A stretch of DNA of 64,000 nt from Eledone cirrhosa. Its lineage: Eukaryota. Made by a program: the position numbers and the translations under genes. Positions 851-47,900 of the stretch are shown here, piece after piece (within the stretch, counting starts at the first letter, position 1; every line of letters starts with the position of its first letter). Location of the stretch: the NCBI GenBank assembly GCA_964016885.1, contig OZ024744.1, positions 82,336,001-82,400,000 of the forward strand, given 5' to 3'. Under the pieces are notes generated by a model. It saw only the letters and a list, made by a program, of their open reading frames with translations, was not told the DNA's origin and did not search any database.

Positions 851-3524
851 GAAAAGGCATAACAGACATAAGAAGCGATAATGTAATTACCTGGAAACCC
901 TCCAAAATAAGCTAACTAAACTTGTTCATCAACAACTATATAAAACACTGACATCTAATTGTCAATAGGCTGGTTGGTGATCTGAAGAATAATAATATAT
1001 TTCTGGGGAGTATATGGTGGTTTCGTTAGTGAATGAATAGTGGTATTGATGGCAAATCAGTTAATTATCGAAGACAATGAGAAAAGGGGAAAATACCAAA
1101 TTATGACACATTATGATTACCGAAGAGTCTTTTACAGCTAACCACCGCCTTGTAGACATTGAATATATATTATTAAAACTAGTATTAAGAACAGTGTATC
1201 AGCTATGTTATAAAAAAACCCATCAATTATATAATCATTTTCCTTAGAGGTTTATTCCTCTTGCACGACCTGCTTGTCTACAAACTTACAGCAGAAGAAT
1301 TATTCTGTCACGCACCTAGGTCTTATCTCAGGTCAGCAACCAAGGTCTGTGGTTGTTGGTTGGAGAAAACATAATCATATATCCTTTTTAATTTTTCAGT
1401 TATTTGACTGTGGCCATGCTAAGGTAGCACCATGTATTCAAATACAATAGCATTAAAATAAAGTGAACAATATTCTGAAATCAAAATAACTACGATGCAA
1501 AGCAAAGAAACATATGATACGGCTGCCCAAGTCACTCAAATCGACACCAGTACTTGACTGAACTATTTTATGACTATCGAAGAATAATAACAGAGAATGT
1601 AGACCTGGTGGGATATCAGAACGTAAAGGGACGTAACTAGTTGCTGCAAGATTTTAAATGTAATCCATCGTTGCAATTTTTATATACTTTACAAGGAACC
1701 AACTTACTATCTTAGATTCAATAATAAAAACGTACATAATTACAAAATAAAACTTCACAGTACAAAAATCAGACAACTGATTCCCACTACTCATTTGTCT
1801 ATACATAGCTCCGCTGGGAAATTTGCTTAATGAAACCAACCTTTTATATACATGCTATAGGTAAACTATAACCCCTTCCTCCTATATATGGATGATTTCA
1901 AAATTGCTGTACTATACGGCACCCAACTACATGTTCTTATTCGTATGTTTCATAGCATAGATAAGATAGAGCCTGTAGGAATGGAAACAAATTAGAAAAG
2001 AGAGCTACAGAAAAATCAGACGTGTATTGATTTCTTGCATTGGCACGAGATTACAAGGTGTAGGAGTAAGTTGATTGGATAAATATATGTCTATTACTTA
2101 TTTTGTCGCACCTCGATGGATGAAAAGCAACGCACCTGGGGGGATATGAACTCATATCGCAGACTTATTAAATGTTGCAAGGAATTTATCTCAGTACTTT
2201 ACCATTTCTATTATTGCACTACATTCGAGTCATACAAATACTAAATATCAAACGAGGCAGATTTTCTTACGTTGAAGCTTCTGAATTATTTTGTATTCTA
2301 AGACTACCATAACCAGCGAAGAACTATGTATCTGTAATGGCGAAATTTAACAATTCTAAGTTTTTACGGGAAATGTAATAATATTCAGCCCAAATTTCAA
2401 GACCAAGTCAGCCTGGGTTTTTATAGCACACATGTCATTATTTGTGAGAATTCTTGTTTATTTCTTTCGGATATATATATCTAAATATATATATACAATA
2501 ATTAGAAGTTTGAGTTATGAATATCCTTTTGTATATAGCAAATTGATTTGTTATTGTTAAATCATGATGAGCTCTTTTGTTTCTATTTTAACACTTACCA
2601 AACATCATAATCAGTTTTATATAATACTCTAGGACGTATTTCGAATTGTTTTCTGTTTCAGGACATACTTCAAATTATGTTTCCTCTACCGATATATTCA
2701 GTGATCTAAGGCATTTTTTTAATTTATCAAAATTACACCCTTGGTGAGGAGAAAGAATCATTAACTTAATGGTCAATTCTGGCCAAGGAAGGCAATGGTG
2801 ACAATCTGTCAAAGCCTTATTTAATTAAAAATATTCTAAAATATAATGTGGGCAACACAGTGTGAGTGATGCCTCGCTCTGTAATATGGTGAAAACTTCG
2901 AAAATATTTCCTTTTTAATATGTCGCTTTGTTGGAGAACAGTTTTTATACAAGTATTGCCAGACAAAGGTGACTTGAGAGATAGTTGCAAAACCGTTTCA
3001 AATAGCATCTCCATAAACAAGATATATGGAAAGCATTTTGAGGGACATTTCAAGTCTCAATGACAACCATTTTAGTGCAATAAATGCTAAATGAAGAGAT
3101 CATAAGATAGATTTTAGATAATTAGATGCCAAAGAATAGTATTTCTGCAATGGAACCCAACACTGGGAATAAAGCAAAAATAAAGAACACTTTGCTATTG
3201 ATGGGACAGAAAATATCAAGAATTCCGTTGCGGTATTTTTGGTTGTAAAATTAGCTCACAAAAAAATAATTTAAATTCTTAAAGTAAACATTAAAGCAAT
3301 TTACAATCAACTTCCAGAAATGGGGAATATAATATTTATAGAAATAAATATCTCACAAATTTTACGAAAATATGTTAAAGCAATTTATCAAAAAATCCCA
3401 GCCGAGAGTAGATGATATGAAGGAATAAAATGAGATGCAAAAAAACAAAAAACCAAAAACCAAACAAACAAAACAAAAACAACCACAAAAACAACAAAAC
3501 ATGCATGGCGAGCCAGAAATTGAA

Positions 3525-3600
<76 letters not shown>

Positions 3601-3654
3601 GTGGGAAAGTAAAGAATCGGAGAATAGACCGTTAAAACATGTTTATTTAAAACA

Positions 3655-3694
3655 GCACCTACGTACGTTTCGCCCAGATGGGCTTCTCAAGGGC
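3655..3694 (-). ncRNA. Minimal type I hammerhead ribozyme (U3-A8 core variant)
   Basis: Minus strand GCCC-TTGAGAA-GCCCA tc TGGGC-GAAAC-GTAC-GTA^GGTGC: core, stem II, palindromic mini stem III as in PLE HHRs. Confidence 0.65.
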
Positions 3695-3983
3695 ATAAAT
3701 AATCAAGTGTTCCTTATATTGCTCGGAAAGAGTTTTGGGGGTTAAATCCACATCAAGGTTCATTGCTCGCAAAAATAGCTTGTTTTGATTTTGCAGCAGG
3801 TCAAGGGAGGTAACTCTGGCCGGTGTTAGGGCAGTCTTTCCCGGACAAATTTTTTTTTTTTTTTGCCACATCTGTTTGTCTGAGGCTGGGACTGGTATGC
3901 AAGGATTGTTTCCTGGGTGTTATTTTGCAGCGCCTGCCCGCCGGGGTGTTAAGACTTGTTGCAGGGAGATCCGGTGTACGGTT

Positions 3984-4442
3984 TCACTCCTCATCCTTAA
4001 CCCATCTGAAGAAGGATATTTTTAAGCGATGTGTACAACTTATCGCTGTTTCAGCTCTGCTGTTGATGAGCTCGTGGGGTGCAGTTATGGTGTGGTAGAG
4101 CTCCATGAGGCAAAGATCGCATTTCCTCTTGAAGTTGTACGGTGCAGCCCTGCCGACAATCTCCCAGTGCGTGGAGAAGCTGATGTTTAAGTCCTTTAGT
4201 GATGTGATGTAGTCCGCGAGCGAAGTGGAGTGTCTTAGTTTTCTATTTGTGAAAGAGTAGAGATGTGTTCGAAACCTAATTTTGAACGGGCCGGAGGTAG
4301 CCCCTATATAATGTTTAACGCTATTGTGGCTAGTAATAGTGCATCTATATATAACCCTATCAGTCAAGCAGTATCCTCTAAGGGGGCAGCGTCCTCTGTC
4401 GCGGCAGTTGCAATTTCTGTCGCGGTTCCGTCTATTTCCCAC
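3984..4442 (-). pseudogene. PLE GIY-YIG endonuclease domain (CxC..CPLxGxC type, Naiad-like)
   Basis: CNCRDRGRCPLRGYCLTDRVIYRCTI..HYIGATSGPFKIRFRTHLYSF..CDLCLME..INSRAE; in-frame TAG upstream. Confidence 0.85.
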
Positions 4443-4879
4443 GGTAAGGCTATCATTGTTGCTGCCTACGTTGTTACCTACGTGCTTACGCTCTGCTAAC
4501 TCTCTAGCCCACTAAATATTAACACTTCGAATATTTAATACTGTCGGCACTAGTATCGACAACCTTTGGCATACGCTATATAAGCGCTTTAGCTAAGCTT
4601 AGTATTGCCACAACCAGGGCTGGCAAAGAAGTAAGGGTCTGGTGGTACGTAAGTAAGCGACACTGTGGCTTAAAACGCGAGGAAGAAGTTGTGTGCACTT
4701 ACCAACTGTTTGGGGAATGAGTGTGAGATTTGTCTTGAGCAAGGGTGGAAAATAACCGGGGGCAGCAGCCAGCCGGACATACAGACAGATATTATAAGGG
4801 CGCAACGTTATATGTATGTATCTATCTAAAACGAGAAAGATTAAGAATTATAGAGAGAGATAGCTAAATCGCCTAATGC

Positions 4880-5086: not shown

Positions 5087-5088
<2 letters not shown>

Positions 5089-5255
5089 CAAAGGAAGTGT
5101 GGTAAGGAACCAGATGGACCATAACACACCATAGTACTCAATACTTAGGGTAGGAGAGTGGGTAATAGGAAAATGTTTAACCCCGACGGCAGAGCTCGAG
5201 CCGTTTCGACGGTTAAACGGCTTGAGCTTTGCCGTCGGGGTTAAACATTTTCCTA
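5087..5255 (-). mobile_element. Short fold-back element, HHR-half family, copy A
   Basis: Hairpin 5166-5255 plus ~80-bp tail, flanked by (TA)n; shared with five other copies. Confidence 0.85.
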
Positions 5256-6906: not shown

Positions 6907-6945
<39 letters not shown>

Positions 6946-6948
<3 letters not shown>

Positions 6949-7289
6949 CTTTCACCGTACTTTTCAACTAAAGACATTTTAGTCAGATAATGGGGTTTAG
7001 AACCCTCAGATAAATGGAAAAAGATGAGTATTGACGTACATGGGAGCCGAACCCACATCTTTGGTTATCCAGACCACTGTGCTACCATGGTGTAAATGGT
7101 AGCACAGTGGTCTGGATAACCAAAGATGTGGGTTCGGCTCCCATGTACGTCAATACTCATCTTTTTCCATTTATCTGAGGGTTCTAAACCCCATTATCTG
7201 ACTAAAATTTATTTAGTTGAAAAGTACGGTGAAAGCTATTCTATTTTCTAATTTCAAACCTGCTCACTGCTTCAAAACATACTTACTTG

Positions 7290-7291
<2 letters not shown>
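6946..7291 (+). mobile_element. Fold-back element with tRNA-like head (SINE-like), PLE-type insertion geometry
   Basis: Near-perfect ~143-bp inverted arms (6946-7088 / 7096-7238), 53-bp tail, (TA)n flanks; TGGTGTAAATGGT A-box-like and GGTTCGGCTCC B-box-like motifs at 7088-7152. Confidence 0.75.
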
Positions 7292-7330
<39 letters not shown>

Positions 7331-12904: not shown

Positions 12905-15900
12905 ATGATTTCTTTATTAACCACAAGGGTTTACATAAAGTAGACATTAAGGACAGTGCAGGACAATAGAGGACGGTACTAATGGGCATTTCTGCGTGTA
13001 AAAAACAAAAACAGAGGATGTAACAGAAAATAACAATGAAAAATTCCCCAATAGGGGGGAGACTTAGGAGGGACATTTGTGGAGAAAGCCCAGTAAAAGG
13101 CCACAGTGACCCTGACCACCAAGGCAAGTGCCCTCTCCCAGTTTTCCACCTTTAATTTACATATACGTACTCAGAGTAGGCTCATTCACTCGGGCCATTC
13201 TTGCTTCTCTCACCCATCTTTCAACAAAATGCTGGGAAGAGAGCACTTCCATCTCTACCCTGATTTTCCTTTTCAAATGAAATTTGAAAAAGTCAATCAG
13301 GGCATCACCGAAGAGGTAAGTGCTCGTCTTCAGCCCTTTCAAACGTGTCCACCATACTATCTCTTTCGCCATGGCCTCCAGACAGATAAAAACTGCCTGC
13401 CCTTCCCGGCTAAAGGAAGCGGGCGGGGATATCCTCACGATGGACTCAGATGATAGCCAGATCCGTCCTACACGGGACAGCAGGTGTTCGACATAAACCC
13501 ACAAGTCAGCAATTTTCGGACACTGGACGAGTGCGTGCAGGACGGTTTCGTCACCCTGCGCGCATCTCGGCCATGCCCGGCTGACGGCACCTCCATGCCT
13601 GTACAGTTTATCCCGAACTGGCAAGGCTCCTCGGTAGCACTGCCAGGCCAGAGATTTCTGGAAGTTGTCCATGGGCCCTGGCCCGAAAGTTCTTCCGAAG
13701 AGATTGGCTAGTTGATTTTCGTCGACGCCTAGAGTTTCCCCAAGTACGTCGTCGCTCTTCCCCTCCATTAATCCTCTATAGAACGCCGAGGTGGAGTTTC
13801 CACCGATCACATTGCCCGATTGGTCGAGGGCTGTGAGCGCCTGAAAACATTCCAGTCTCCAGGCGCTCCGTCTCGGTCTTCGCTTGACCCAGGACTGCAG
13901 CTCCGTCAAGGAGACGAGCTGGGGAAAGACGTGTCTAGCAAACGGCGACCACACCTGATCACCGTCGAGGAAGAGGTGGAGATGTCGTAGCCTGAGCGCG
14001 TGTCTGCGCATCATCATCCACGGCATGCCCAGCCCTCCACGTAGCGGGTGTTGACAGCAGATGGACCGCCTGACCATCGGAGCGCGTCCCTTCCACAAAA
14101 AGCGAAAAAGCAAACGCTCCAGCGCAGTCAGGCGGGGCTTAGGACAAGGTACGACGGTCCGGCGGTAGCAGATGACAGACGCGATGTACGCGTTAGCCAC
14201 CTCCGCTGGACCTTTCAGGGATAGCTTACTCTCCGCCCATTTCTGGGTGAGAGAAGCCACCCTGCTCGTCACCTCGTCCCAGTTTTTATCCGTCTGGAGG
14301 TCCGGACCGAACCAGACCCCAAGCAATTTAACCGGTCCGTCCGTCCAGCGTCCGACGACGCTGTTGGACGGCATGGACCTGCCTCTCCAGGTACCGAGCT
14401 GCAGGCCCACTGACTTTTCCTGGTTGATCATTGCTCCTGTCACCGCTTCGTAGTCTCTTAGTGTAGTGCCAATCGCCTCGATGTGTTTGGTGTTCGACAC
14501 CACTACGGTGACATCGTCCGCATATGCTGACACGGATCTTCTGCATCCTAGTTTGCGCGGGACGCCCCTCAACGTCTCCAGTTTGTGCAGTAATGGCTCG
14601 AGAGTCAATACGTACAAGAGGGACGAGAGGGGACATCTTTGGCAGACCGAGCGCATGATGTTGAATGGTTCCGAAAGGTGACCGTTCACTCTCACCACAG
14701 AGCAGATGTCGCTGTGCATGGCAGCGATCCAGCCTCTGAAGACGGGCCCAAAGCCAGCCGCCCTCAGGACTGCCGCTAGGTAACGATGATCGACCCTATC
14801 GAAAGCTTTCGACTGATCTAAATTGATCAAGGACCCACCCGTGCCAGGTTCCCTAGCTACCGTCTCTACGATGTATCGCATGAGGTGGAGGTTGTCGTGG
14901 ATGGATCTGTCGCCAACCTCTTTGCTAGCACCTTGGCCAAAATCTTGAGCTCTGTGTTTAGCAGAGATTTGGGCCTAAAAGTATCTATGTTATCCCCCTT
15001 GTTCGGATCCTTTCTCAGCAGTGCCACAGCTCCTCGGCTCACAGAACTGGGAATTCTCCCGTTCTGTTGCCAGTTGCAGTAGACGTCAGCCAAGAGGCCT
15101 CCGAACAAGTATGGCATCTGTACGTAAAGTTCATAGGGCAGACCATCGAAACCAGGCGATTTACCCCTTGTGCAGCCAGTCATTGCCTCCCGTACTTCAG
15201 CGGCTGTTATCGGCTTTTCGCAACAATCCGCGTCAGTGGCCGAGAGCCGCGGCAACCGTCGAGGTAGACACTAAAGTCCATCCCTCGATCCGGCCCGCCG
15301 CTGCCCCCGAACAGCTGAGCGAAGTGTCGCTGAAAAGTTTCACACATTTGCCCGGGATCTAGTAGCATGCGCCCGTCGTGGTCCACCAAAGACCGGATCG
15401 TGGCTTGTTGCCACGACGCGCCTCGGCCACTCGGGCCCATTGAACGGCTTTCGTCCCCTCGTGTCTGAGAGCACGCACCCTAGCTCTGACAACGCAGCCT
15501 TCGTGCTTTGCATTGAAGAATTGGTCAAGGGCCAATTTAGCCGCAAGTACGTCGGTCGCGATGCCTTTGCTAAGCGCCTCGCCTAATTTTCTAACTAATT
15601 CTCCCTCTGCTCTATTTTTCTCTATTGCTAAATCCTTACTAAACCTAAGTGACTCTATTCTAATTGCTCTTTTCAGAGCAAACCACCACTTGTTGTTGAC
15701 GATGGCCTCCGTCAACGCCCGCTTAACTATTTCGCTAATCCGGTCTCTGTAGGCCTTGCGCGCTGGTAAAGACGCGTTTAGTTTCCAGTAGCCGGGTCCT
15801 CGTCTATGAAACCTATCTAAGTCAAGCACACATGTCACAAATTTGTGGTCCGTGTAGCTGACTATCTTGAATTGTGGACAGCCTTTGCTAGACCTATCTA

Positions 15901-16760
15901 TTTCCCTACAAAATACTCTATATAGATATGATCTGGATGACGCTATGCGATTTGTCCAAGTCCACATTGGCACATTCGGGAAATCCAATCGGTATCTGTC
16001 AGACAGTTCAAAACGCCTGAGCAGGTTGGTGAGGCTCTTGCACCCTCCTCTCCTATCCGCTTATCCCACACAGTCCCAGCGTGCATCTAAGATCCCGTTG
16101 CAGTTGCCCACTAACACTGAAGGGCGGGACGTTTCAAGAAAGGTCTCCAGACGCCGGAAGAAATCAGGCCGCTCTGCTCCTGTCGGGGCATAGACGGCCA
16201 CTAGCCTGAAAGCTTGCTCGTCTCCGCTGGTCACGTCTAGCACGACCAACTTACCTTCTGGGTCCAGGAATATGGCCCGTATGGCAAGATCCAAACCTCT
16301 CCGAAAAAGCACAGCAACTCCTCCCCCCCGATCCCTGACGGCTGGGAGATGCGTACACATCGTAACCGCCGAAGATCGGTGCGAAGGCCCGTGCTTCGGA
16401 GATTCTGGTCTCGCTGATGGCCACTACATCTATGTTTAGTGATCTGCGGTCGTTGAGCAGGTGGCGCTGCTTCCATGACGACCCCAAGCCACGCGCATTT
16501 ATGCTGCCTATCTGAGTGAGGTCATGTTGAAATGGAGTGGAAAAGATGGGAAAGACCACTTACCTTACTTCTCGTAGAGGAAGGATGGTTTGTCCACCCT
16601 TATCACTGCTTGTAGCCTCCTCGGGAAGGATGTCCTTATAAATCCTCCTGGAGAGTGTTTCGGAAGTCTCTGATGTCTTTGGGGAATTTTTGTTTTAGTG
16701 TCGTGTACGTTTTCTGTGTGATTCGAGTGATTTGTATGTGTGGAGGTGGTGTGAACTTCG
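12905..16760 (-). mobile_element. L1/Tx1-clade LINE (ORF1 3' end + disrupted ORF2: APE endonuclease, RT, C-terminal Cys/His motif, 3' UTR, (TTA)n tail)
   Basis: GSINARGLG..AISET (EN), SYTDHK, KSPGFDGLP, LDQSKAFDRV, AYADD, ETVLHALVQC; several frameshifts and a short deletion near 14910. Confidence 0.95.
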
Positions 16761-19215
16761 CTAACACCCTGTGGGAAAAATCTTAAACTCTGTGTTGAGC
16801 AGAGTTAAGCGCCTGAAATTGTCTAATGTGTCCCTCTTCTTCTCATCTTTCCTTATCAGCGTCACTATGCCACGGCTCACAGAACTGAGAATACTCCCGT
16901 TCTGCTACCAGCTGCAATAGAGCGCTTCGAGGAGATTTGAGAACAATTCTGGCATATTTACGTAAAGCTCGTAGGGCAGACCATCGAAACCGGGTGACTT
17001 GCGCCTCATGCAGCCGACAAGAGCATCCTGAACCTCGGCTGAAGTAATCGGCCTTTCGCAGCGCCCAGCATTGGCCGCCGAGAGTTGTGGCAATCCATCG
17101 AGGTAGGTTCTGAAGTCCGCCACCGTCTCTGACACGCCACTTCCCCCGAACAACCGAGCAAAATGTTGGCGAAAGGCCTTACACTTCCCCACCATCTATT
17201 GTTGACGACTCCCCCTGTCAACTTTTTCTTAACTAAATCGTTGACTTGGTCCCTGTAAGCCTTACGTGCCGGAAATGACATGTTTAGCTTCCAATAACCA
17301 GGTCCTAACCTACGCGTCTTATCTAGGTTGACCATACAGATCACAAACTTGTGATCTGAATAGGCGACCGTTTTTAAACGTGGACTGCATACACTATTTC
17401 TGTCTATTTTCCTAATGAATATCCTGTCTATATACGATCTAGATGACCCTATGCGGTTAGTCCAGGTACACACTGGCGCATTAGGGATATCTAGAAGGGA
17501 GGAGAGAGGCCACCCTTGACGGACCGATCGGGAGACCTGGAACGGCTCCGAGAGGTGGTCATTAATTTTGACCACCGAACAGGTGCCACTGTGCATTGCA
17601 GTGATCCAGCCGCCTTGAGGACAGTCTCCAGGTACCGATGCTTGACCTATCGAATGCTTTCGATTGATCTAAATTGATCAGTGTCCCACCGAAGCCAGGT
17701 AAACACCATACCCTCTCTATGATGTATTGCATGAGGTGGATGTTGTCGTGTATGGACCTGCTTGGGATTGCGCAATTTGCGCCTCCCCAACCAAATCCTC
17801 GACGACAAGCGCCAATCTCTTTGCTAACACCTTGGCCAAAATCTTAAACTCTGTGTTGAGCAGAGTTATGGGCCTGAAGTTGTCAAATGTATCCCTCTTG
17901 TTCTCGTCTTTCCTTATCAGCATCACTACGCCCCGGCTCACAGAACTGAGAATCCACCAGTTGCAGTAGAGCGCTTCGAGGAGATCGGAGAACAAGTCAG
18001 GCATATTTACGTAAAGCTCGTAGGGCAGGCCATCCAAATTGGGTGACTTACCCCTCATGCAGCCGACAAGGGCGTCCTGAATTTTGGCTGAAGCAATTGA
18101 CTTTTAACAGCGCTCAGCGTCGACCGTCGAGATGCGCGGCAAGCCGTCAAGGTAGGGACTGAAATCCGCTACTCTCTCTGAGCCGCCACTCTCCCCGAAC
18201 AACCGAGAAAAGTGCTGGCGAAAGGCCTCACACATCCGCTCGGAATCGCTTATCTCGTGTCCGTCTCGGTCCGCCAAAGACCGAGTTGTGGTTTTATTAC
18301 CACGTTGCGCCGCCGCCACGCGGGCCCATCGAACATCTTTGGTTCCCTCGTTTCTCAGCGCACGCCTTAGCTCTGACAATGCAACCTTCGTGTTTCGCAT
18401 TGAAGAAATGGTCTAATGCGATTCTCGCCGCTAGCACGTCAGTTGCAATGCCACTTCAAATAGCCTCGTCTAACTTATCTACCAGCTCCCCCTCCTTTCT
18501 ATTTTTCTCTAACGCTAGTTCTTTGCTGAACTCTATAGGAGTTACTCTAATCTCTCTTTTGAGAGCCCCCCTGTCAAATTTTGCTTATTTGCTTAACTAA
18601 ATTGATGACTCGGTCCCTGTAAGCTTTACGCGCCGGAAATGACATGTTCAGCTTCCAGAAACCCGGTCCCAACCTACGCGTTTTATCTAGGTCGACAATA
18701 CAGATCACAAATTTGCGATCTGAATAGGCGACCGTTTTAAAAAGTGGGCAGCCTACACTATTTCTATCTATTTTCGTAATGAAGATCCTGTCTATATACG
18801 ATCTAGATGACCCATGCGATTGGTCCATGTCCACACTGGCGGATTAGGGAAATCTAGTCGATACCTGTCAGACAGTTGGAGCTGACTGATGAGGTGCTTG
18901 AGGCTTTTGCAGCCCCCGCTCCTATCAGCTACTCCCACACAATCCCAGCGTACGTCTAAGTGCCGCTCCAGTCCCCCGCTAACAGTAAAGGGCGAGACGT
19001 ACCCAGAAAGGTTTCCAGGCGCCTAAAGAAGTCCGGTCGTCCGGCCCAGTAGGGGCGTAGATGGCCAGCAGTCTAAAGGCACCACCTTCGCTACTGCTCA
19101 CAGCCAAGACCACAATCTTACCGTCCGGGTCCCGGAAGATCGACCTTACATCGAGATCCAGTCCTTTCCTAAACAGCACTGCCACCCCATCTCTCATTCC
19201 CGGCCTGCTAACAGA
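16761..19215 (-). mobile_element. Scrambled LINE ORF2 fragments (related subfamily) with internal duplication
   Basis: EN..RT-N run (19197-17493) then a second SSRSYIDRIF..GYWKLN segment (17490-17190) and a second KSPGFDGLPYE segment (17190-16780). Confidence 0.85.
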
Positions 19216-23645: not shown

Positions 23646-26156
23646 TGTCAGAAAGCTAGAAGAGGCGTTTAGGACAGGCATCGCAACCGACGTGCTTGCG
23701 GCAAGATTGGCACTCGATCAATTCTTCAACGCAAAACACGAAGGCTGCGTTGTCAGAGCTAGAGCACGTGCTCTGAAATAAGAGGGGACAAAAGCCGTCC
23801 AATGGGCCCGGGTGGCAGAGGCACGACGTGGCAACAAAGCCACAATACGGTCTTTGTCTGACCAAAACGGGTGCGTGTTGCTCGAACCCGAGCAGATGTG
23901 TGAAGCTTTTCAGCAGCACTTTGCTGAACTGTTCGGGAGCAGCGGTGGCCCGGATCGGGGCATGGACGTCAGTGCATACCTCGACGGACTGCCTCGGCTC
24001 TCGACGACCGCAGCACAGTGTTGCGAAAAGCCAATAACAGCCGGTAAAATACGGGAAGCGATGGCTAACTACACGAGGGGTAAATCGCCAGGTTTGGATG
24101 GTCTGCCCTACGAGCTTTATGCATTTATGCCAGACTTGATCGCTGACCTCTTGGCAGACGTCTACTGCAACTGGCAGCAGAACGGGAGCATTCCCAGTTT
24201 TATGAGCCGGGGAACGGTGGCTCTGCTGAGAAAAGACCCGAACAAGGGGATGTTATCGATAATTTCAGGACCATAACCCTGCTAAACGCAGAGTTCAAGA
24301 TTTTGGCCAAGGTGTTAGCAACGAGGTTGGCGCTTGTCGTCAAGGGTCTGGTGGGAGAGGCGCAGACATGCGCCATTCAGGACAGATCCATACACGGCAA
24401 CCTCCACCTCATGCGATACATCATAGAGAGGGTAGTTAAGGAACCTGGAACGAGTGGGGCCCTGATCAACTTGGATTTTTCCAAAGCATTCGATAGGGTC
24501 GACTATCGGTACCTGGCGGCGGTCCTCGAGGCAGCCGGTTTCGGGCCCGTTTTCAGGGGTTGGATCGCTGCGATGTACAGCGACATCTGCTCAGTTGTGA
24601 GGGTGAACGGTCACCTGTCGCAGCCGTTCAGCATCATGCGCTCAGTCCGCCAGGGTTGTCCCCTATCGTCCCTCTTGTACGTATTGGCTCGCGAGCCGTT
24701 ACTGCACAAACTGGAGGCGATGAGGGGCGTCCCACGCGAACTAGCATGCGGGAAATCCGAGTCAGCTTACGCCGACGACATCACTGTGATTGTGTCGATC
24801 ACCAGACACGTCAAGATGCTCGGCATCGCTCTCAAGGAATACGAAGCGGTGACAGGAGCAAAGATAAACCAGGAAAAGTCGGTGGGCTTGCAGCTCGGCA
24901 CCTGGAGAGGAAAGTCCATGCCGTCCGACAGCGGCGTGGGGCGTTGGACGGACAGACCGGTTAAATTGCTCGGGGTCTGGTTCGGACCGGACCTCCAGAT
25001 GGAGAAAAACTGGAACGAGGTGACGAGCAAAGTGACCTCCCTCACCCAGAAATGGGCCGAGGTGAAGCTGTCCCTGAAAGGCCGGGCGGAGGTGGCGAAT
25101 GCGTACATCGCATCCGTCATCTGCTACCGCCTCACCGTCGTCCCTTGCCCCGGCCCAACTCTCATTAAAATGGAGCGCCCCTTCTTCCGCTTTTTGTGGA
25201 AGGGACGCGCTCCCATAGTCAGACGATCCATCTGCTGTCAACACCCGTTGCGTGGAGGACTGGGCATGCCATGGCTGATGATGCGCAAACATGCGCTGAG
25301 GCAGCGACATCTCTGGTGCTTCCTTGACGGTGAACAGGTGTGGTCGCCGTTCGCCAGGCATGTTTTCCCACACCTCGTCTCCTTGACGGAGCTGCAGTCC
25401 TGGGTCAGAAAAAGACCGAGTGATAACGCTTGGAAACTGGAATGTCTCCAGGCGCTCACTGCCCTCTGCCAGCTGGGCACCAATATCGGTGGAACATCCA
25501 CCTCGGCGTACTATAGAGGACTAGTGGAGGGGAAGAGCGACGACGTAGTCGGAGAGATCCTGAACGTCGAAGAAGATATGCTGTTTGTTCTCTTCCGGAG
25601 AACTTTCAGCCCAGGGCCTATGGATAACTTCCAAAAATCCCTGGCCTGGCAGTGCTACCGGGGAGCGCTGCCGGTTCGAGATAAGCTCTACAGGCACGGA
25701 AGTGCCGTCAGCCGAGCCTGTCCGAGATGCTCGCAGAGCGACGAAACCGTCGTGGAGAGGCAAGTGCTGCCTTCTAACAAGTTTGTTGAAATGTGGGTGA
25801 ATGTAGCGAGAATGGACCGAGTGAACGGGACCACTCTGAATATACGTCTGCAGTTTGAGAAATGGAAAAATTGAGAGAGGGCGCTTGCCCTCGTGATCAG
25901 GGTGGACGTGGTCTTTTGTGTGGTTTTCGCCACGAGTAACCCTCGGAGGTTTCCCCCCTATTGGGGAATTTTTCATTGTTTCAATTTTCATTTTTATTGT
26001 TTATATATATATATGTTTCTGTCTTTTTTTCTTTTCTTATATAAATAAAAATATTTACTTGCACAAAACCCACATCGTATCGTACCGTCCTGTACCCTCA
26101 TGTGCCGTCTGTAATGTTTTTCTTGATGTCAGCCCTTGTGGCCAATAAAGAAATCA

Positions 26157-26200
<44 letters not shown>
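23646..26200 (+). mobile_element. 5'-truncated L1/Tx1 LINE (RT + 3' UTR + (TTA)n tail)
   Basis: ORFs 23812..24276 and 24303..25874 with LDFSKAFDRV, QGCPLS, YADD, CPRC; internal deletion near 25751 relative to other copies; AATAAA then (TTA)n. Confidence 0.95.
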
Positions 26201-26601
26201 GGTGAAGCCACGCTTCTTATCGCCTCCAGTGTTTTTTCCACGTTTTACCTCGTTTTTAACCGTTCTTAACCTTTTATTAAAGTTTTAAATTTGATAAAAG
26301 TTTAGAAGAAGTGACCCACCTAATACAGGGGTTCACTCGTAAATAATACGGCACCCCTTTACGGGGTGTCGTATTGTGTAAAAACATTATTGGCGACCTA
26401 CGTAGTAAATCGTATCATCGTGAGCTCCGCAAAGGTTTGTTGTTTTCAGTTTAAAATTGCCATTTATGGAAAAGTTTTATTGTTAACTGTATATAAGTGC
26501 ACATACATTGTTTTCTAAAAAGGACACTCAAAAAGATTGGGGCCTTGAGCCCCAAATTTAAACTTTTATAATTATCAAACAAAAACTTCTTTGAAAAAAT
26601 C

Positions 26602-28481
26602 ATGGACGTCTCACAGTCACACCTTCCTCACAAACTAACACCTCACACCGACACCACCATTGTAAATATTACTACGTTTGCCAACACTAAAAATATAAGC
26701 AGTAGCAATAACTTAAATTTGTCTCATGCAGACATTCATTTCCCGCCATTACCAATGACTGCAGGTGTTGAAGCCGCCACCCCCACCACCACCACAGCGA
26801 CAACAGAAACAAAAGAAAAATATAAATTATCTCGTGATATCGAAATGGTTTCACCCAGAATGGAATCTTCCACACCGAACACCACTGACGCCACCACCAC
26901 CACAACTGAAACTTCAAATAACAATAACAAAAATAACGATAACAACAACAGCAACAACAACAACAAAAATGAGAATAAGAAAACCACCCTGTCTTTTGCC
27001 AGAGTAGCAAAAAAGTCCGAAGCAATCCAGGTAACTCAGGAGGAATTAGATGAAGCTAAGAGAATGGTAAAGAAAGATGGGTACAGAGTAAGCCCCCCTA
27101 CTAATAAAATGGAGCATCGGCGCCTATGCACCGTGTCTTATCGGACGATTACCATAAAATCGCGCCGAGTGGAACGGGCATCCGAGTCCCTAATCCAAAA
27201 AGCTTTGGGACATGTGTGGGCAAAAAAACCCCACATCAGACGTGGGCAGAAATATGGAACCGTAGACGTGTTCTTTGGAACACCACAGGAGGCCAGAGAA
27301 CACTCCATGGCCCCAATAAGAAGTGACGACTTCACATTCGTCCCAAGCTATTGTGGCCAGAGACTCGTGAAGACCAGTGTAACCCACGTTCCACCGGCCA
27401 TCGAAATTCCCTGGCTAATGGCTGCCGTCCTCGCCGGCATCGATGCCAACACCAAGATAATCGAAATAGCGAAAGAAAAGCAGGAGAACTGGTCCGGATC
27501 TGGGATGGAGCTCCTGATCCAAGCGGACCAAAAAAGCATTGAGGAGATCCCAGAGGTAATAGACCTCACTGACGGCAGCCACCTCACCGTGATCGTCGAG
27601 GGCAGAAGGCCTAGGTGTGTCGTTTGTGGTGAAGGAACCCACCTAAGGGCTTACTGCCCTCAGGCTAAAAGGTTGAGGCCACCTCTCTTACCCACCCCAG
27701 TGACTCAACCATCAACACCACCAGCATCAGAAATGGCATCAACAACAGAAGCAACTGTAACAGCAACAACCCAGCAACAGTAGAGGATTTTCCACTCCCC
27801 GACCTATCGCAACTCGAGACAGATTGTAACGACGAGGAATGGGAAATGGTATCAGGAAAAAAGAAAAAAAAGAAAAAGAAACCAAAAAAGAAAAAATCCC
27901 CTTTCTTCCCCCTCCAAAAACAATATACAGAGGGAAAAAATAAACTATCAAACAAAAAAGTTAGGACAGCTATGCCACCATCCACACCAGCACCATCCAC
28001 ACCACGCCCATCAGGGCGGTGGATTGGCAGTATCGGTAGAGGGTCGGACGCCATGCTTTCCAGTATAGTTACATCCCTTTACGATCTGAGTTCAAATCCC
28101 AACGAGGTTGACTTTGCCTTTCAACCTTACGGGGTCGATAAAATAAAGTACCAGTAATTTACTGGGTATTTGTTGGCCTTGTGCCTAAAGTAGAAACAAT
28201 TAAATTTGAACAACAACCGATTATTACACTACATCCAACACAACACCAGCATCACAGAAAAAGACTACACAACAACCCAAAAGTTCACACCGCCTCCACA
28301 CATACAAATCACTCGCATCACACAGAAAACGTACACGACACTAAAACAAAAATTCCCCCAAAGCATCGGAGACTTCCGACAAGCACTCTACAGGAGGATT
28401 TATAAGGACATCCTTCCGGAGAAGGCCACAAGCAGTGAAAAGGATAGAGAAACCATCCTTCCTCTACGAGAAGTAAGGTAA
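26602..28481 (+). pseudogene. LINE ORF1 (gag-like, CCHC knuckle), broken by stop/frameshift near 27783 and a SINE insertion
   Basis: EGRRPRCVVCGEGTHLRAYCP (CX2CX4HX4C); terminal segment ..ILPLREVR* also present in the minus copy at ~16560-16760. Confidence 0.85.
28014..28200 (+). mobile_element. Full-length tRNA-derived SINE nested in LINE ORF1
   Basis: GGCGGTGGATTGGCAGTATCGGT..GAGTTCAAATCC..GACTTTGCCTTTCAACCTTACGGGGTCGATAAAATAAAGTACCAG. Confidence 0.92.
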
Positions 28482-28515
28482 GTGGTCTTTCTCATCTTTT
28501 CCACTCCATTTCAAC

Positions 28516-31500
28516 ATGACCTCACTCAGAATAGGCAGCATAAATGCGCGTGGCTTGGGGTCGTCATGGAAGCAGGGCCACGTGCTCAACGACCTCAGGT
28601 CACTAAACATAGATGTAGTGGCCATCAGCGAGACCAGAATCTCCGAAGCACGGGCCTTCGCATCGATCTTCGGCGGCTACGATGTGTACGCATCTCCCAG
28701 CCGTCCTGGATCTAGGGGAGGAGTTGCTGTGCTTTTTCGGAGAGGTTTGGATTTCGCCATACGTGCCATCTTCCTGGACCCAGAAGGTAAGTTGGTGGTG
28801 CTGGTCGTGACCAGCGGAGACGGGCAAGCTTTCAGAATAGAGGCCGTCTATGCCCCGACAGGATCAGGGCGGCCTGATTTCTTCCGGCGTCTGGAGAACT
28901 TTCTTGGAACGTCCCGCTCTTTAGAGTTAGTGGGCGAATGCAACGGGATCTTAGATGCACGCTGGGACTGTGTGGGATTAGTGGATAGGAGAGGAGGGTG
29001 CAAGAGCCTCACCAACCTGCTCAGGCGTTTTGAACTGTCCGATAAGTACCGATTGGATTTCCCGAATGTGCCAATGGGGACTTAGACAAATCGCATAGGG
29101 TCATCCAGATCATACCTAGATAGAGTATTTTGTAGGGAAATAGATAGGTCTAGCATAGTCAGTTCACAATTCAAGATAGTCAGCTACACGGACCAAAAAT
29201 TTGTGACATGTGAGGTTGACTTAGATAGGCTTCATAGACAGGGACCCGGCTACTGGAAGCTAAAAGGCGTCATTAACAGCGCGCAAGGACTACAGAGACC
29301 GGATTAGCGAACTAGTTAAGCGGGCGTTGACGGGGGCCATCGTCAACAACAAGTGGTGGTTTGCTCTGAAAAGAGCGATTAGAATAGAATCCATTAGGTT
29401 TAGTAAGGCTTTAGCAATAGAGAAAAATAGAGCAGAGGGAGAATTAGTTAGAAAATTAGACGAGGCGCTTAGCAAAGGCATTGTGACCGACCTACTTGCG
29501 GCGAAATTGGCCCTTGACCAATTCTTCAATGCAAAGCACGAAGGCTGCGTTGTCAGAGCTGGTGTGCGTTCTCTCAGACACAAGGGGACGAAAGCCGTTC
29601 AATGGGCCCGAGTGGCGGAGGTGCGTCGTAGCAATAAAGCCACGATCCGGTATTTGCTGGACCACGACGGGCGCATGCTACTCGATCCCGGGCAAATGTG
29701 TGAAGCTTTTCAGCGACACTTCGCACAGCTGTTCGGTGGGCCGGATCGAGGGATGGACTTTAGTGTCTACCTCGACGGACTGCCGCGGCTCTCGGCCACT
29801 GAGGCGGAGTGTTGCGAAAAGCCGATAACAGCCGCTGAAGTACGGGAGGCAATGACTGGCTGCACAAGGGGTAAATCGCCTGGTTTGGATGGTTTGCCTT
29901 ATGAACTTTACGTACAGATGCCAGACTTATTCGGAGGCCTCTTGGCGGACGTCTACTTCAACTGGCAACATAACGGGAGAATTCCCAGCTCTGTGAGCCG
30001 AGGAGCTGTGGCGCTGCTGAGAAAGGATCCGAACAAGGGGGATAACATAGATAATTTCAGGCCCATAACTCTCCTAAACACGGAGTTCAAGATTTTGGTA
30101 AAGGTGCTAGCAAAGAGGTTGGCGCTTGTCGTTGGTGGTCTGGTGGGAGGGGCACAGACATGCGCCATTCCCGAAAGATCCATCCACGACAACCTCCACC
30201 TCATGCGATACATCGTAGAGAGGGTAGCTAGGGAACCCTGCACGGGTGGATCCTTGATCAATTTAGATCAGTCGAAAGCTTTCGATAGGGTCGACCATCG
30301 TTACCTAGCGGCAGTCCTGAGGGCGGCTGGCTTTGGGCCCGTCTTCAGAGGCTGGATCGCTGCCATGCACAGCGACATCTGCTCTGTGGTGAGAGTGAAC
30401 GGTCACCTTTCGGAACCGTTCAACAACATGCGCTCGGGCCGCCAAGGATGTCCCCTTTCGTCCCTCTTGTACGTATTGACTCTCGAGCCATTACTGCACA
30501 AACTGGAGACGTTGAGGGTGATCACGCGCGAACTAGGATGCGGAAGATCGGTGTCAGCATATCCGGACGATGTCACCGTAGTGGTGTCGAAAGCCAAACA
30601 CATCGAGGCGATCGGCACTACACTAAGAGAATACGAAGTGGTGACAGGAGCAATGATCAACCAGAAAAAGTCAGTGGACCTGCAGCTCGGCACCAGGAGA
30701 GGCAGGAACATACTGTCCAACAGCGTCGTCGGGCGTTGGACGGACGGACCGGTTACATTGCTAGGGGTCTGGTTCGGTCCGGACCTCCAGACGGACAAAA
30801 ACTTGGACGAGGTGACGAGCAGGGTGGCTTCTCTCACCCAGAAATGGGCGGAGAGGAAATTATCCCTGAAAGGTCGAGCGGAGGTGGCTAACGCGTACAT
30901 CGCGTCCGTCATCTACTACCGCCTGACCGTCGTACCTTGTCCTTAGCCCCGCCTGACTGCGCTGGAGCGTTTGCTCTTTCGCTTTTTGTGGAAGGGACGC
31001 GCTCAGATGGTCAGGCGGTCCATCTGCTGTCAACACCCGCTACGTGGACGGTGGGCATGCCGTGGCTGATGATGCGTAGACACGCGCTCAGGCTACGACA
31101 TCTCCACCTCTCCCTCGACGGTGATCAGGTGTGTCGCCCATTGCTAGACGCGTCTTTCCCCAGCTCGTCTCCTTGACGGAGCTGCAGTCCTGGGTCAAGC
31201 GAAGACCGAGAGGGAGCGCTTGGAGACTGGAATGTCTTCCAGCGCTCACAGCCCTCGATCAATCGGGCAATATGATCGGTGGAAACTCCACCTTGGCGTT
31301 CTATAGAGGATTAGTGGAGGGGAAGAGCGACGACGTACTTTGAGAAACTCTAGGCGTCGACGAAAATCAACTAGCGAATCTCTTCGGAAGAACTTTCGGG
31401 CCAGGGCCTATGGACAACTTCCAGAAATCCCTGGCCTTGCAGTGCTACCGAGGAGCCTTGCCAGTTCGGGATAAACTCTACAGGCAAGGAGGTGCCGTCA

Positions 31501-31925
31501 GCCGCGCATCTCCGAGATGGGCGCAGGGCGACGAAACCGTCCTGCACGCACTCGTCCAGTGTCCTAGCATTGCTGACTTGTGCGTTTATGTCGAACACCT
31601 GCTGTCACGTGTAGGACGGATCCAGCTATCAGCTGAGTCCATCGTGAGGATAGCCCCGCCCTCCTCCTTCAGCCGGGAAGGGCAGGCAGTTTTTATCTGT
31701 CTGGTGGTCATGGTGAAAGTGATAGTAAGGTGTATACGTTTGAAAGAGCTGAAGACGAGCACTTACCTCTTCGGTGATGCCCTGATTACCTTTTTCAAAT
31801 TTCATTTGAAAAGGAAAATCAGGGTAGAGAGGGAAGTGCTCTCTTCCCAGCATTTTGTTGAAAGATGGGTGAGAGAAGCAAGAATGGCCCGAGTGAATGG
31901 GCCTACTCTGAGTATGTGTCTGTAA
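28516..31925 (+). pseudogene. LINE ORF2 (APE endonuclease + reverse transcriptase), inactivated
   Basis: MTSLRIGSINARGLG..; stops at 29085, 30946, 31343; frameshifts; YPDD instead of YADD. Confidence 0.92.
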
Positions 31926-36539: not shown

Positions 36540-36608
<69 letters not shown>

Positions 36609-36720
36609 GTTTGAATATGTGTAATAAATCCAAAACAATGCAGGTATGGACATAGAAAAAAGAATGCAATTGTAAAAGATATTGTTGACAATTCGTCCTT
36701 CACTTTAGATTTATTTAAAT

Positions 36721-36758
36721 GTCCTTAATTTTCGAGATAATATCTCTTCTTCAGAGGG
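36721..36758 (-). ncRNA. Hammerhead ribozyme motif (inverted pLTR copy)
   Basis: Mirror of 39158-39195. Confidence 0.6.
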
Positions 36759-37734
36759 AAGTAAAGCTCTCAAACCAGCGTTCTAAATATCTTGCCAAGC
36801 CATGCTGACAGGAAATAGAATAGAGTATCTGTTCTATCTCTAATGTCAAAGAGTTAAAATTAGGTGGATAAAGAGTAGTCTCCCTTTAAAAGGGGTTTGT
36901 TTAGGGTTTTTTTTAATTTTTTTAATTTTATATACATGCCTGTATAAGTGTGTGGGAGAATGCATGAAGGTGTAAGTATGTGTGTGTGTGTGTGTGAGTG
37001 TGAGAAGATAAGTCTATTCGTAAATGTGGGGGATAGGTGTTATCTGGTGTTAGAACTGGTTTTGTGTGTGTATGTGTGAGAGAGAATAAGTGGAGGTGTA
37101 AGCGTGTGTGTGTGTGGGGTGTGTAAATATGGGGCTAGAAGCCCTATCAGGTTATAAATTGGGTGTTGAGTTCTAGTCTATTATTGATTGGTGGTTGTGT
37201 TTTATCTATAATTAGTGCTTCCTTAATTCTAAGATTGCCAAGGTTTCTTTTCTTAGTTTCTATCCTAACTGTTATGGTTTTGTCGGTGTTTTTGCATTTA
37301 ACTAGGTGTTTCTTAAATGAGGAAGCGTTAGTATTGAGGTGTTCTTTTATTCTTATGTGGAGTGGTGTGGTGGTGCTACCTACGTAGAAGTTGTTCCATT
37401 TGTCACACTCTAGTCTGTATACGACGTAAGCCTGGTGGCATAGGTCTGTGTCGTTGATGGGGCAGTTGGCTAGTCTGCAGCAGTTGTCATGTCTGGTGGA
37501 GTGTCTCTTGGCCAGCCGTCCGCGCAGAGAAGGACCTGAGTGGGCCAGTTGGATATCCAGTCCCTCTAGTCTGATGGCTCTGCGCATGGCTGTTGTTGTT
37601 TCTTCACTGAAGTGTGGGAGCTTCAGGAAGCAAGTGTTAGTGTCTCGTGTGTGGTGTCCTCTGTTCTTTCTGGCACGGTTTGTGGTGGATGTCGTGTATC
37701 CGTTCAGTTTGAGTACTTCCAGTACACCACACAT

Positions 37735-38766
37735 ACAGACAGACAACAGGATTACCTATGGGATCCAGCCTATCGGGCCTGCTGGCCATCACCTACATGA
37801 ACCAGCTAGAATACCGAGCTCTCAACACCTGCCATTCCCATGCCTTCTTCACCCGATATGTAGATGACATACTCATCCTTACATCATCCCGTGAGTAGGC
37901 AGATAAAATATACACAACATTCTCCAGCATGGACGCCAGTATAAAGTTCAGCATGGAACACCCCGATGACCGCGGATCCCTATCCCTACTGGACTTCCAA
38001 CTCAGGGTAACAGAGGAAGGCAACATCCACACCTGCTTCTTTAAAAAAGCCGCCAGCAGGGACCTGTTCGTACATTTCAGATCGGCCCTCCCACTCGGTG
38101 CCAAGTTCGGATACATAAGGAACGAACTGGCACGTATCCGGAACAAATGCACCGACGCTAGAAACCGAGACACACACACCACACATTTCCTGGAAGTACT
38201 CAAACTGAACGGATACACGACATCCACCACAAACCGTGCCAGAAAAAAACAGAGGACACCACACCCGAGGCACTATCACTTGCTTCCTGAAGCTCTCACA
38301 CTTCAGTGAAGAAACAACAACAGCCATGAGCAGAGCCATCAGACGAGAGGGACTGGATATCCAACTGGCCCACTCGGGTCCCTCTCTGCGCGGACGGCTG
38401 GCTATGAGACACTCCACCAGACATGACAACTGCTGCAGACTAGCCAACTGCCCCATCAACGACACAGACCTATGCCACCAGGCTTACGTCGTATACAGTC
38501 TAGAGTGTGACAAATGCAACAACTTCTACGTAGGTAGCACCACCACACCACTCCACATAAGAATAAAAGAACACCTCAATACTAACGCTTCCTCATTTAA
38601 GAAACACCTAGTTAAATGCAAAAACATCGACAAAACTATAACAGTTAGGATAGAAACTAAGGAAAGAAACCTCGGCAATCTTAGAATTAAGGAAGCACTA
38701 ATTATAGATAAAACACAACCACCAATCAATAATAGACTAGAACTCAACACCCAATTTATAATCTGA
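37735..38766 (+). pseudogene. PLE RT C-terminal half + GIY-YIG endonuclease
   Basis: Hand translation YRQTTGLPMGSSLSGLLAITYM..RYVDDILIL, then LSLLDFQL, VVYSLECDKCNNFYVGSTTTPLHIRIKEH; one stop and one frameshift. Confidence 0.92.
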
Positions 38767-39157
38767 TAGGGCTTCTAGCCCCATATTTACACACACGCAC
38801 GCGCACACACACACGCTTACACCTCCACTTATTCTCTCTCACACATACACACACAAAACCAGTTCTAACACCAGATAACACCTGTTCCCCACATTTACGA
38901 ATAGACTTATCTCTCACACTCACACACACACACTCACATACTTACACCTTCATGCATTCTCCCACACACTTATACAGGCATGTATATAAAATAAAAAAAA
39001 TAAAAAAAACCCTAAACAAACCCCTTTTAAAGGGAGACTACTCTTTATCCACCTAATTTTAACTCTTTGACATTAGAGATAGAACAGATACTCTATACTA
39101 TTTCCTGTCAGCATGGCTTGGCAAGATATTTAGAACGCTGGTTTGAGACCTTTATTT

Positions 39158-39195
39158 CCCTCTGAAGAAGAGATATTATCTCGAAAATTAAGGAC
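39158..39195 (+). ncRNA. Minimal hammerhead ribozyme motif in pLTR
   Basis: CCCT-CTGAAGA-A-GAGATA t TATCTC-GAAAATTA-AGG. Confidence 0.65.
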
Positions 39196-39543
39196 ATTTA
39201 AATAAATCTAAGGCAAAGGACGAATTGTCAACAATATCTTTTACAATTGCATTCTTTTTTCTATGTCCATACCTGCATTGTTTTGGCTTTATTACACATA
39301 TTCAAACGTTTATACCTCATTACACAATGTTTCAAGTGAAATATAACCTCCTCCATATATATATATATATATATATACAGTCCTAGAGTAACCAATCTTA
39401 AAGAGAGATATGGAAATAGGATAGGAGATAGGAGAGGAGAGATTGGTGAATTAGTTAGAAGCCAAAGCGTAATATGTGCAATATGCAGCGGAAAGCAGCT
39501 AGGTGGCTGGGTTCATGCAGAAGTTAGGTACGCACAGCTGGAA

Positions 39544-46000: not shown

Positions 46001-47638
46001 TTTGTACCGAAGGGTTGTTGTTCATTTTTTCTGTTAGGTTTTTATTGTTTTTGTTTATGTATGTGTAGAGTTTTTGTGTTGTTGTATTTGTTTTTGCTTG
46101 TTGTTATTGAGTGAGCTTGCGTTTTGTTGTCTGTGTTGTGTTGTCAGGTGGGGTTATTTTTGTTTGTGAGGTGTGTGTACGTTTTTCCTTTTGACTTTTT
46201 GGAAGGGAGCCCCCTTGTCTTCCGAGGATATGAGCTCCTCTTCCGTATTGGAGGGGAGGGGTATATTGCCAGGTTGTGTTTGCACTGCGCGTGTTTTTGT
46301 ATTTGTGTTCTGTGGGGAGGGGTTGGGTGGGACCGTATTTTGGGTTGTTTTCTTGAGCTGTTGTTGTTGTGGTGGTGGTGCTGGAGGTGGTGCTGTTGGT
46401 TTTTGTTGTCGTTGTGGTGGTGATGGTAGTGTATTTTGTTGTTTTTGTGGTGGTGGTGCTGGTTGTTTTTGTTGTTGTTGTGGTGTTTGTAGCAGTGGTT
46501 TTTTTGTTGTTAGTAGAGGGCAGGCAGTCCTCAGGTGACCTCTGCCAGCGCAGTGGTAACATAAGGGATCCTGCCTTCCACCGTAATATTAATAAAGGTT
46601 CAACCATCCAGCAGGACTCGGTCGGGTATTCCGGCGATTCTCTCAGGTGTCATCTGTAAGAGAACCCCCAGACTTTTCCCCCCGAACAGTCCACTGGTGG
46701 ACTCCACTGCTGATATTAGGATGTCCTTTTCTAGGTCCGTGAAAACTGTCAGGACGGACCAGATGTTTACTTCTGGCGTTGAGCTCCACATTCTTAGTCT
46801 TTGAGTTCTTCTTCCTTTATATGTGGGGAAGAAGGTGTATTGTGGTGACACTATAGGTGCCACCGAGCATTTTTGAGCCAGCATTTCGTCCTTCATTCGG
46901 ACCATAATGCTGGCATACAGCTTTCCTCTTTCAATAAAGAGTATGTCTTTTTTTATGTTATTCAGAACCAGCTCAATTTGACTTTCTGTCAATTGAGCTG
47001 GCTTTCTTGTTGCGTTGGATATAGTCCTGAAGGTTATGGTATTCCTATATACCTGTTGACGAACTTCTTCTGGGGAGTTGATCGTAAAAGAACCATCCTC
47101 CCCCAAAGATACGTATTTTCTGCATTTAGCAAGTTCTGCTTAGCGTTTGTAATGTCTATGGGCTTGTACTCGATAGCTTTCCTGACCGTTTGGGCAAAAG
47201 AAACTTTGTTGTCTTTGTTGCTTTCGCTTCGTTCATTGTTGCTTGTTGTTGCAATGTTGTTGGTTTCATCTTTTGTGGTATATTTTTCCTTGTTATTTTT
47301 TACAAAATTTAGGTTTTCACTCGTATTAACAGTTTTTTTTCCATTCGAGAGGTGGGGTTGTTCAACAATTTGAATTGTTGTTCCCTCTTTCTCGCTTTTT
47401 TTGGTAGGCGTGGCGTTAGCTTCCAATATGGCTTCCTCGTTTTCAACGATATCGATAAACATTTTGAATTAAATATTTTTTCACCCCAAAAGGGGCGAAA
47501 ATATATTTACCCTACGTCTACAGTCCCAGACTAGGGGTTAGAGTCAACAATAGTAAAACAATTTAAATAATACACTCACAAATAATCAAGTAATGATTCA
47601 AAATCGAAGAGCCGATGTGTAAGACGTCTACTACCAAC
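43097..47638 (-). mobile_element. Divergent L1/Tx1 LINE, near full length with large deletion between EN and RT
   Basis: ORF1 pieces 47462-45690; EN MAVLRVGCLNARGLG; junction near 45133; LDQSKAFDRV, QGCPLS, YADD, CLRC..HALVHC; 3' CCCTCGTGGCAAATAAA; 5' boundary inferred. Confidence 0.9.
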
Positions 47639-47640: not shown

Positions 47641-47900
47641 TAGACAGATAGACAGACAGGTAGACAGATAGACGGGCTGACAGACAAACAGATAGAGAGA
47701 TAGACGGACTGACAGACAGAAAGACAGATAGATAGACAGATAGACAGACAGATAGACAGACAGATAGACAGATAGACAGATAGACAGATAGACAGATAGA
47801 CAGATAGACAGACAGATAGACAGACAGATAGACAGATAGACAGATAGACAGACATATAGACAGACAGATAGACTGACAGACATACAGACAGAGAGACATA
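47641..47900. repeat. (GACA/GATA)n tetranucleotide repeat
   Basis: Direct inspection. Confidence 0.95.

Follow-up and report, generated by a model that had tools for sequence, protein, structure and literature searches.

Short interspersed elements (SINEs) are defined as parasites of LINEs (PMC3531059), and the octopus repeats OR1 and OR2 are CORE-SINEs (PMC4758252, PMC4824008). For Penelope-like elements (PLEs), a protein has been shown to cut and extend both strands of its target, starting at two internal sites and leaving the span between them as a tail, and transcription of PLEs yields tandem precursors (PMC11167929). PLE insertions have further been described as biased towards (TA)n, with partial tandem copies, one-sided tails of 30-40 bp and 5' copies in inverted orientation (PMC8557442). 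Retrozymes have been named as a PLE-dependent, SINE-like case (PMC8969392), and the short PLE parasites known in the literature that we searched are either ribozyme-bearing retrozymes or deletion derivatives. We found no tRNA-bearing, PLE-dependent element in that literature, while the tables of Repbase, Dfam or SINEBase may already hold an annotation of one.

The window, a stretch of 64,000 nt from the genome of Eledone cirrhosa, contains at 6945-7291 a fold-back feature that a first-pass annotation had read as a monomeric tRNA-headed SINE inserted with PLE-type geometry. The fold-back geometry is confirmed: an inverted arm (6945-7088, minus strand) and a direct arm (7096-7239) of 144 nt each pair at 142 of 144 positions with 2 mismatches, across an unpaired junction of 7 nt (7089-7095) with a CCA/TGG microhomology at the join, and (TA)n runs flank the feature on both sides (6908-6947 on the left, 7292-7327 on the right). 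The unpaired tail that had been noted is also real, being 52 nt long (7240-7291) rather than 53 nt. The tRNA-like stretch stands as well, since 7088-7144 aligns with positions 8-63 of the Rfam tRNA model at 29.6 bits (cut-off 29). The module as a whole occupies 7088-7152 and contains an A box (7088-7099) and a B box (7131-7141), in which A58, an A in most other copies, is changed to G at 7137. ARAGORN calls full units elsewhere and calls no tRNA in the window, because the 5' acceptor strand is absent from this copy. Downstream lie a trailer (7155-7173) with a T5 run (7162-7166), which in full units is folded into an 18-19-bp pairing with the segment preceding the tRNA, and a body (7174-7239) with two predicted hairpins (7179-7192 and 7200-7218), for which compensatory changes and homology to an old sister family (family E, below) speak. 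In the predicted fold a further helix has its 5' strand at 7227-7233 and closes on 7264-7270, within the tail. Matches to miRNAs in the Rfam scan of the window were rejected as artefacts of the perfect hairpin.

We took the numbering of a full unit from locus L025 (1442-1701). A full unit is about 260 bp long (260-272 bp), non-coding, and consists of an upstream segment (unit 1-51), a complete 71-nt tRNA-like cloverleaf (52-122), a trailer with T5 at 132-136, and a structured body and tail ending at 260; the full-unit cloverleaf scores 48-51 bits against the same Rfam cut-off of 29. The window copy runs forward from unit 59 to 260, its tRNA module covering 59-122, and backward from unit 208 to 66; it belongs to a dispersed family and is truncated at its 5' end. 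Its fold-back point had been placed close to the 5' end of the element, and copies had been expected to begin with GACGTAC; the fold-back is instead a truncation inside the tRNA (unit 59 and 66) and not the natural 5' end, and the 5' acceptor strand actually reads GATGTGT and forms three G-U pairs.

The multi-copy nature of the repeat was borne out by the genome search, which gave 1692 first-look candidates for the right arm in the 3.0-Gb genome, the 40 that were scored being 93-97% identical. An exact 24-mer of the unit has at least 481 matches, an exact 22-mer of subfamilies B and C at least 304, and the junction segment at least 615 with up to two mismatches; these lower bounds tally arms, not insertions, and the copies number in the hundreds to thousands. 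The median divergence of segments from the column majority is only 2.4%, thus the family is young. Four young subfamilies (A-D; the copies of D are about 270 bp long, 98% alike and represented by 1235 candidates) and the old sister family E, whose copies are 72-89% alike and whose body profile matches the A unit with E=1e-12, have a common layout. The 51-nt upstream segment and the exact head-to-tail junction are conserved in A-D and E, and so are the cloverleaf and the leader/trailer helix of 18-19 bp.

Insertion geometry was read from four samples, in which 120 loci yielded 88 insertions once overlapping loci had been removed; the set still includes a few segmental duplicates, and three of the four samples were selected for part of the unit. 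Inverted insertions number 61 of the 88, and 129 of the 148 primed ends abut (TA)n. The ends fall into two clusters 40-50 nt apart, site A (unit 249-260, 74 ends) and site B (unit 200-227, 54 ends), which together hold 128 of the 148, with 20 ends elsewhere; in the window copy, the inverted arm is primed at site B, the upstream start site, where the body of the direct arm also ends, and the tail runs from there to site A at unit 260. Both ends are visible in 60 insertions, of which 40 combine A with B, 2 have A twice, 1 has B twice and 17 involve another site, so that A and B are paired in 40 of the 43 arm pairs with both ends in the clusters (p ~1e-9 against independent choice). Subfamily D, in a sample selected for site A, has 16 of 29 insertions inverted and 13 of 16 pairs of the A+B kind. 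Fold-back joints also occur, at many different positions, in contigs of three public runs from one study, therefore the inversions are not confined to this assembly. The marks of non-autonomous PLEs, namely 5' truncation, partial tandems, an inverted 5' copy, a one-sided tail and a microsatellite target, are all found in this family. The PLE insertion signature and the lack of a poly-A or LINE tail, both claimed in the first-pass annotation for the window copy, thus hold at the level of the family, with two-ended geometry, (TA)n targets and inverted arms.

A family of autonomous GIY-YIG PLEs from the same genome (L269-L297) was used as a control. It has 13 ends at one site, 14 at a second site 41-61 nt upstream and 2 elsewhere, and all five of its two-armed loci have one end of each site; no canonical hammerhead core was found downstream of its ORF. 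This family is related to an element in the window (36602-39354, plus strand), a 5'-truncated autonomous-type PLE with an inverted arm, a 40-nt tail, a C-terminal GIY-YIG domain and a minimal hammerhead core at 39162, whose similarity to the unit is not significant. A second control, a Neptune-type family, has essentially one end site and is uninformative because its loci are too short to hold second arms.

A match of the body and tail to the 3' end of an autonomous PLE, which had been envisaged earlier, did not materialize: profile HMMs gave no significant match (best E about 1) to 83 PLE loci of about ten families, which sample only part of the PLE diversity in a genome with 10597 GIY-YIG candidates. 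Body profile HMMs were run against successive sets of 32, 22 and 83 PLE loci, and also against masked flanks totalling 871 kb, and returned only further members of the family. A 35-nt likeness of the unit to the 3' end of the window PLE (77%, E 0.12) was rejected, as its E-value was 46 on a profile search. In the clade of the window PLE, the tails share with the unit a short motif lying about equally far from the end (5 of 9 tests with a nominal p of 0.02-0.04), and two unrelated ends scored as high as this clade in the end-anchored comparison; the likeness is nominal, and the motif may serve as a lead only. Since none of the 83 loci matches, a PLE partner is deduced from geometry and not from a matching sequence, and on this geometry it is very probable that a PLE enzyme mobilizes the tRNA-bearing repeat.

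Several other elements lie in the window or resemble the repeat. A short (TA)n-flanked element at 5087-5253 folds back on itself and contains one half of a hammerhead-like core, is found again beside many of the loci examined (L002, L036, L038, L095, L096, L241, L246, L257, L260 and L280), and is probably a PLE end or a retrozyme. At 3600-4511 (minus strand) lies a Neptune-type PLE that is truncated at its 5' end and belongs to a young and very large family, with 59154 first-look candidates, the best 150 of which have 95-98% protein identity. Another AT-rich dispersed repeat of about 1.9 kb, inserted in (TA)n and 94-96% alike among copies (L317, L318 and L324; about 1130-3018), contains an internal tRNA-like gene (ARAGORN Ala-GGC), whose anticodon loop is that of family E, and an internal inverted repeat. 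LINE copies of related families with endonuclease and reverse transcriptase frames, some of them broken, are found at 13157-17668, 23782-31925 and 43526-47139. Finally, a degenerate repeat of more than 16 kb at 47840-64000 contains open frames for Thr/Ile-rich repeats spanning at least 1500 aa, and may be a mucin-like exon or a satellite.

The A and B boxes of the tRNA module are intact in A-D and recognizable in E. The module agrees with the genome's tRNA-Gln in 48-50 of 75-77 columns (~64%), which is no better than its agreement with some bacterial tRNAs and points to no one isotype; 19 prokaryotic Gly, Gln and His tRNAs collected with a degenerate motif are no closer to the unit than the genome's tRNA-Gln, and a degenerate-motif search for its origin in viral contigs gave 0 matches. 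Since the anticodon loop varies freely, the module is not a decoding tRNA, and a Ser call by ARAGORN was rejected because the long variable arm is absent. The T5 run is conserved in all subfamilies and lies 10 nt after the tRNA, at the terminator position of genuine tRNA genes, suggesting that a tRNA gene was captured with its trailer; the genuine tRNA-Gln loci, many of them in one cluster, have T6 or longer in 20 of 28 cases. One tandem tRNA-Gln cluster (L184-L193, G000:C1:168.2 Mb) has trailers resembling that of the unit and may be the source of the captured gene. The 5' half of the family E tRNA resembles tRNA-Gln.

In the predicted fold, unit 33-51 forms a 19-bp helix with 125-143, stacked under the acceptor stem, while the longest such leader/trailer helix was 16 bp in 3000 shuffles and 5-16 bp in 28 tRNA-Gln loci. 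Across 25 natural copies of A-E, 84-85% of the cells are paired, compared with 37-55% for slid partners. The covariation score is higher than in all 500 shuffles, a control that ignores relatedness, and the number of doubly changed pairs does not beat the shuffles (143/500). At the family level (A-D versus E) the acceptor stem has two clear double changes and the anticodon stem one or two, and three pairs break in E; the body shows one compensatory change from T-A to C-G in subfamily D and one from G-C to A-T in C. As for A-to-I editing, no genome-wide bias of A>G over T>C was seen, A>G being raised only in the leader stem (15/488, with 5 from one insertion). A hammerhead core (CUGANGA..GAAA, 0-1 mismatch) was not found on the plus strand of the unit by a scan that does find the core of the window PLE, one core with one mismatch occurs on the minus strand only, and no Rfam ribozyme matches the unit. 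A decayed hammerhead in the body was considered and rejected, the core bases being wrong in A and worse in D.

The 5' ends of the copies fall into two hotspots. The first, at the T-stem/acceptor junction, holds 22 of 33 eligible ends at unit 112-120 and, by a crude walk in subfamily D, 19 of 30 at 111-118. It overlaps short palindromes that favour joining, and since non-inverted copies stop at 112-120 as well, we infer a stall at the folded or m1A58-modified tRNA. The second lies at the tRNA start, where 14 of 27 arms end at unit 45-53, 11 of these 14 upstream of tRNA +1, with two methods differing on individual loci. The simplest reading is that the RNA would begin 4-6 nt before the tRNA, a position that fits Pol III initiation.

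The template appears to have been longer than one unit. Segment 1-45 forms part of a 260-to-1 junction in 18 of the 19 insertions picked for it, and the junction is present in 13 of 20 insertions picked for the tRNA and in 4 of the 22 whose selection used the body alone. Priming and read-through cross the unit junction at any register, and head-to-tail arrays reach 25 units. Subfamily variants are shared in 75 of 118 informative tandem comparisons and in 151 of 216 comparisons between arms (64-70%), as against 16% between loci. These junctions and the units of one subfamily require either a circle or else template jumps on a linear RNA that is terminally redundant.

We consider it about 60% probable that a PLE reverse transcriptase copies a template exceeding one unit in length, which Pol III read-through provides. 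In a tandem copy, Pol III would begin transcription 4-6 nt ahead of the tRNA, and some transcripts would pass the first T5 into the next unit, so that the RNA would exceed one unit and have repeated ends. Both strands of a (TA)n target would then be cut by a dimeric PLE protein, which would begin cDNA synthesis within the RNA, using site A for one strand and site B for the other. In most cases synthesis would halt either at the T-stem/acceptor junction of the folded tRNA (unit 111-120) or on reaching the 5' end of the RNA (45-53), and two such cDNAs would join by microhomology into a fold-back, while some would jump to the repeated end and continue, rebuilding tandem arrays of one subfamily. 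Since T5 would stop an ordinary Pol III transcript before it reached the priming sites, read-through has to be assumed. The leader/trailer pairs are conserved beyond the T run, thus pointing to an RNA that passes T5 with the leader available, and a circle explains this equally well.

A closed RNA circle of 260 nt, copied by the PLE enzyme in rolling-circle fashion as in retrozymes, with the tRNA fold recruiting processing or ligation enzymes in place of the hammerhead, is the alternative to be taken most seriously, although we hold it to be unlikely. It would account for the crossing of the junction at any register and for arrays of a single subfamily; when the unit is opened at 45/46, its ends come to lie next to each other on the trailer in the predicted fold, the circular fold has z-scores of -2.4 to -3.3 against shuffles, and retrozyme RNA is circularized by tRNA ligase (PMC7229834). 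However, a circle has no 5' end, yet about half of the arms stop at 45-53; the hammerhead and Rfam scans revealed no cleavage site or ribozyme in the unit, and opposite arms occasionally belong to different subfamilies within one insertion (L225 and L029). Nor can the longest array prove copying in one pass: this satellite-like array of 6.9 kb (L201, G000:C1:131458911-131465822), with an inverted PLE-type head and about 25 direct units between (TA)n runs, consists of old units about 15% apart with later internal duplications. It was also rejected as a master locus, since its units are about 9% from the family majority.

Read-through of tandem copies could also come from Pol II or a host transcript, the tRNA fold then serving RNA stability or RNase P cutting and not as a promoter. 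Such a transcript would avoid the T5 problem, would resemble the tandem precursors of PLEs (PMC11167929), and would make sense of the conserved acceptor stem, which a promoter does not need. We find this improbable, since RNase P does not account for those ends of the 45-53 cluster located upstream of tRNA +1, and since A and B boxes remain intact in A-D and recognizable in E.

The monomeric tRNA-headed SINE of the first-pass annotation, whose Pol III transcript would serve a PLE enzyme as template and in which tandems are secondary, is very improbable. The clustering of 5' ends at the tRNA start, which it had predicted, was found in 14 of 27 arms, and 18 of 22 unselected insertions lack the junction; however, 7-8 of the same 27 arms cross the unit junction upstream, and the tRNA is not the head, because 51 nt precede it, nearly always as a head-to-tail junction. 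A monomer that never transcribed the 51-nt segment and the junction could not have maintained them, and both are conserved from A-D to E. Finally, Helitron-like elements also form tandem arrays and the partner PLE was not found among the 83 loci, but mobilization by LINE twin priming, a Helitron-like rolling-circle DNA element or a fold-back DNA transposon is hardly credible, since the arms overlap in sequence unlike those of LINE twin-priming inversions, a poly-A or repeat tail is absent, the 5' ends differ from copy to copy but the 3' ends fall at two fixed sites, and the end asymmetry matches that of a PLE of the same genome.

The chances are about even that the repeat represents an undescribed class of Pol III retroposon that parasitizes PLE reverse transcriptases, with a tRNA gene and terminator replacing the hammerhead, tandem read-through providing a terminally redundant or circular RNA, and a persistence that has left one old family and four young subfamilies with compensatory cloverleaf changes. 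If so, a PLE parasite bearing a tRNA gene would bridge SINEs and retrozymes, and the hammerhead would be dispensable. Across the population of insertions, 40 of 43 arm pairs show that internal starts differ between the two target strands, and the repeat offers a compact natural substrate of 260 nt for open questions of PLE mechanism, with testable predictions on how tandem and inverted copies form.

As in tRNA-derived SINEs outlined in SINEBase (PMC3531059), the repeat is short (<1 kb), has more than 100 copies, is ~64% identical to a tRNA over more than 60 nt and carries A and B boxes, in line with the SINEBase definitions of <1 kb with at least 100 copies and at least 60% tRNA identity over at least 60 nt. 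Unlike them, it has its tRNA internal to a tandem unit with T5 directly after it, lacks a simple-repeat tail of its own, and shows PLE-type and not LINE-type insertion geometry, so that the non-tandem interspersion, tRNA as 5' head, LINE partner and simple-repeat tail of the same definitions are all missing. A search of the unit with a CORE-like motif, as a proxy for the CORE domain that follows the tRNA head in OR1 and OR2, gave no match. With autonomous EN+ PLEs, for example the anole Poseidon element PAc described in PMC11167929, the repeat shares two internal reverse-transcription starts and a tail, AT-rich targets, priming on both strands and tandem or inverted copies, whereas it has no ORF and no hammerhead and would rely on the enzyme of a partner. 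Non-autonomous Chlamys PLEs such as MRC1 (PMC8557442) resemble it in their pLTR-like partial tandems, multicopy head-to-tail insertions, microsatellite targets and mostly hammerhead-free state, but have 3' sequence in common with an autonomous family, and the description of these elements in that source includes no tRNA module. Metazoan non-LTR retrozymes, as presented in PMC7229834 and bioRxiv 10.64898/2026.07.22.740005, are likewise non-coding tandem units of 170-400 nt, found as monomers to multimers, for which PLE enzymes have been proposed, and the unit falls within this size range; each of their units has a type I hammerhead, which the unit here lacks, having instead a complete tRNA-like gene with A and B boxes and a T5 trailer, and the main text of the latter source mentions neither tRNA nor Pol III. 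Taken together, the repeat is likely a retrozyme-like non-autonomous PLE with a tRNA gene in place of the ribozyme.
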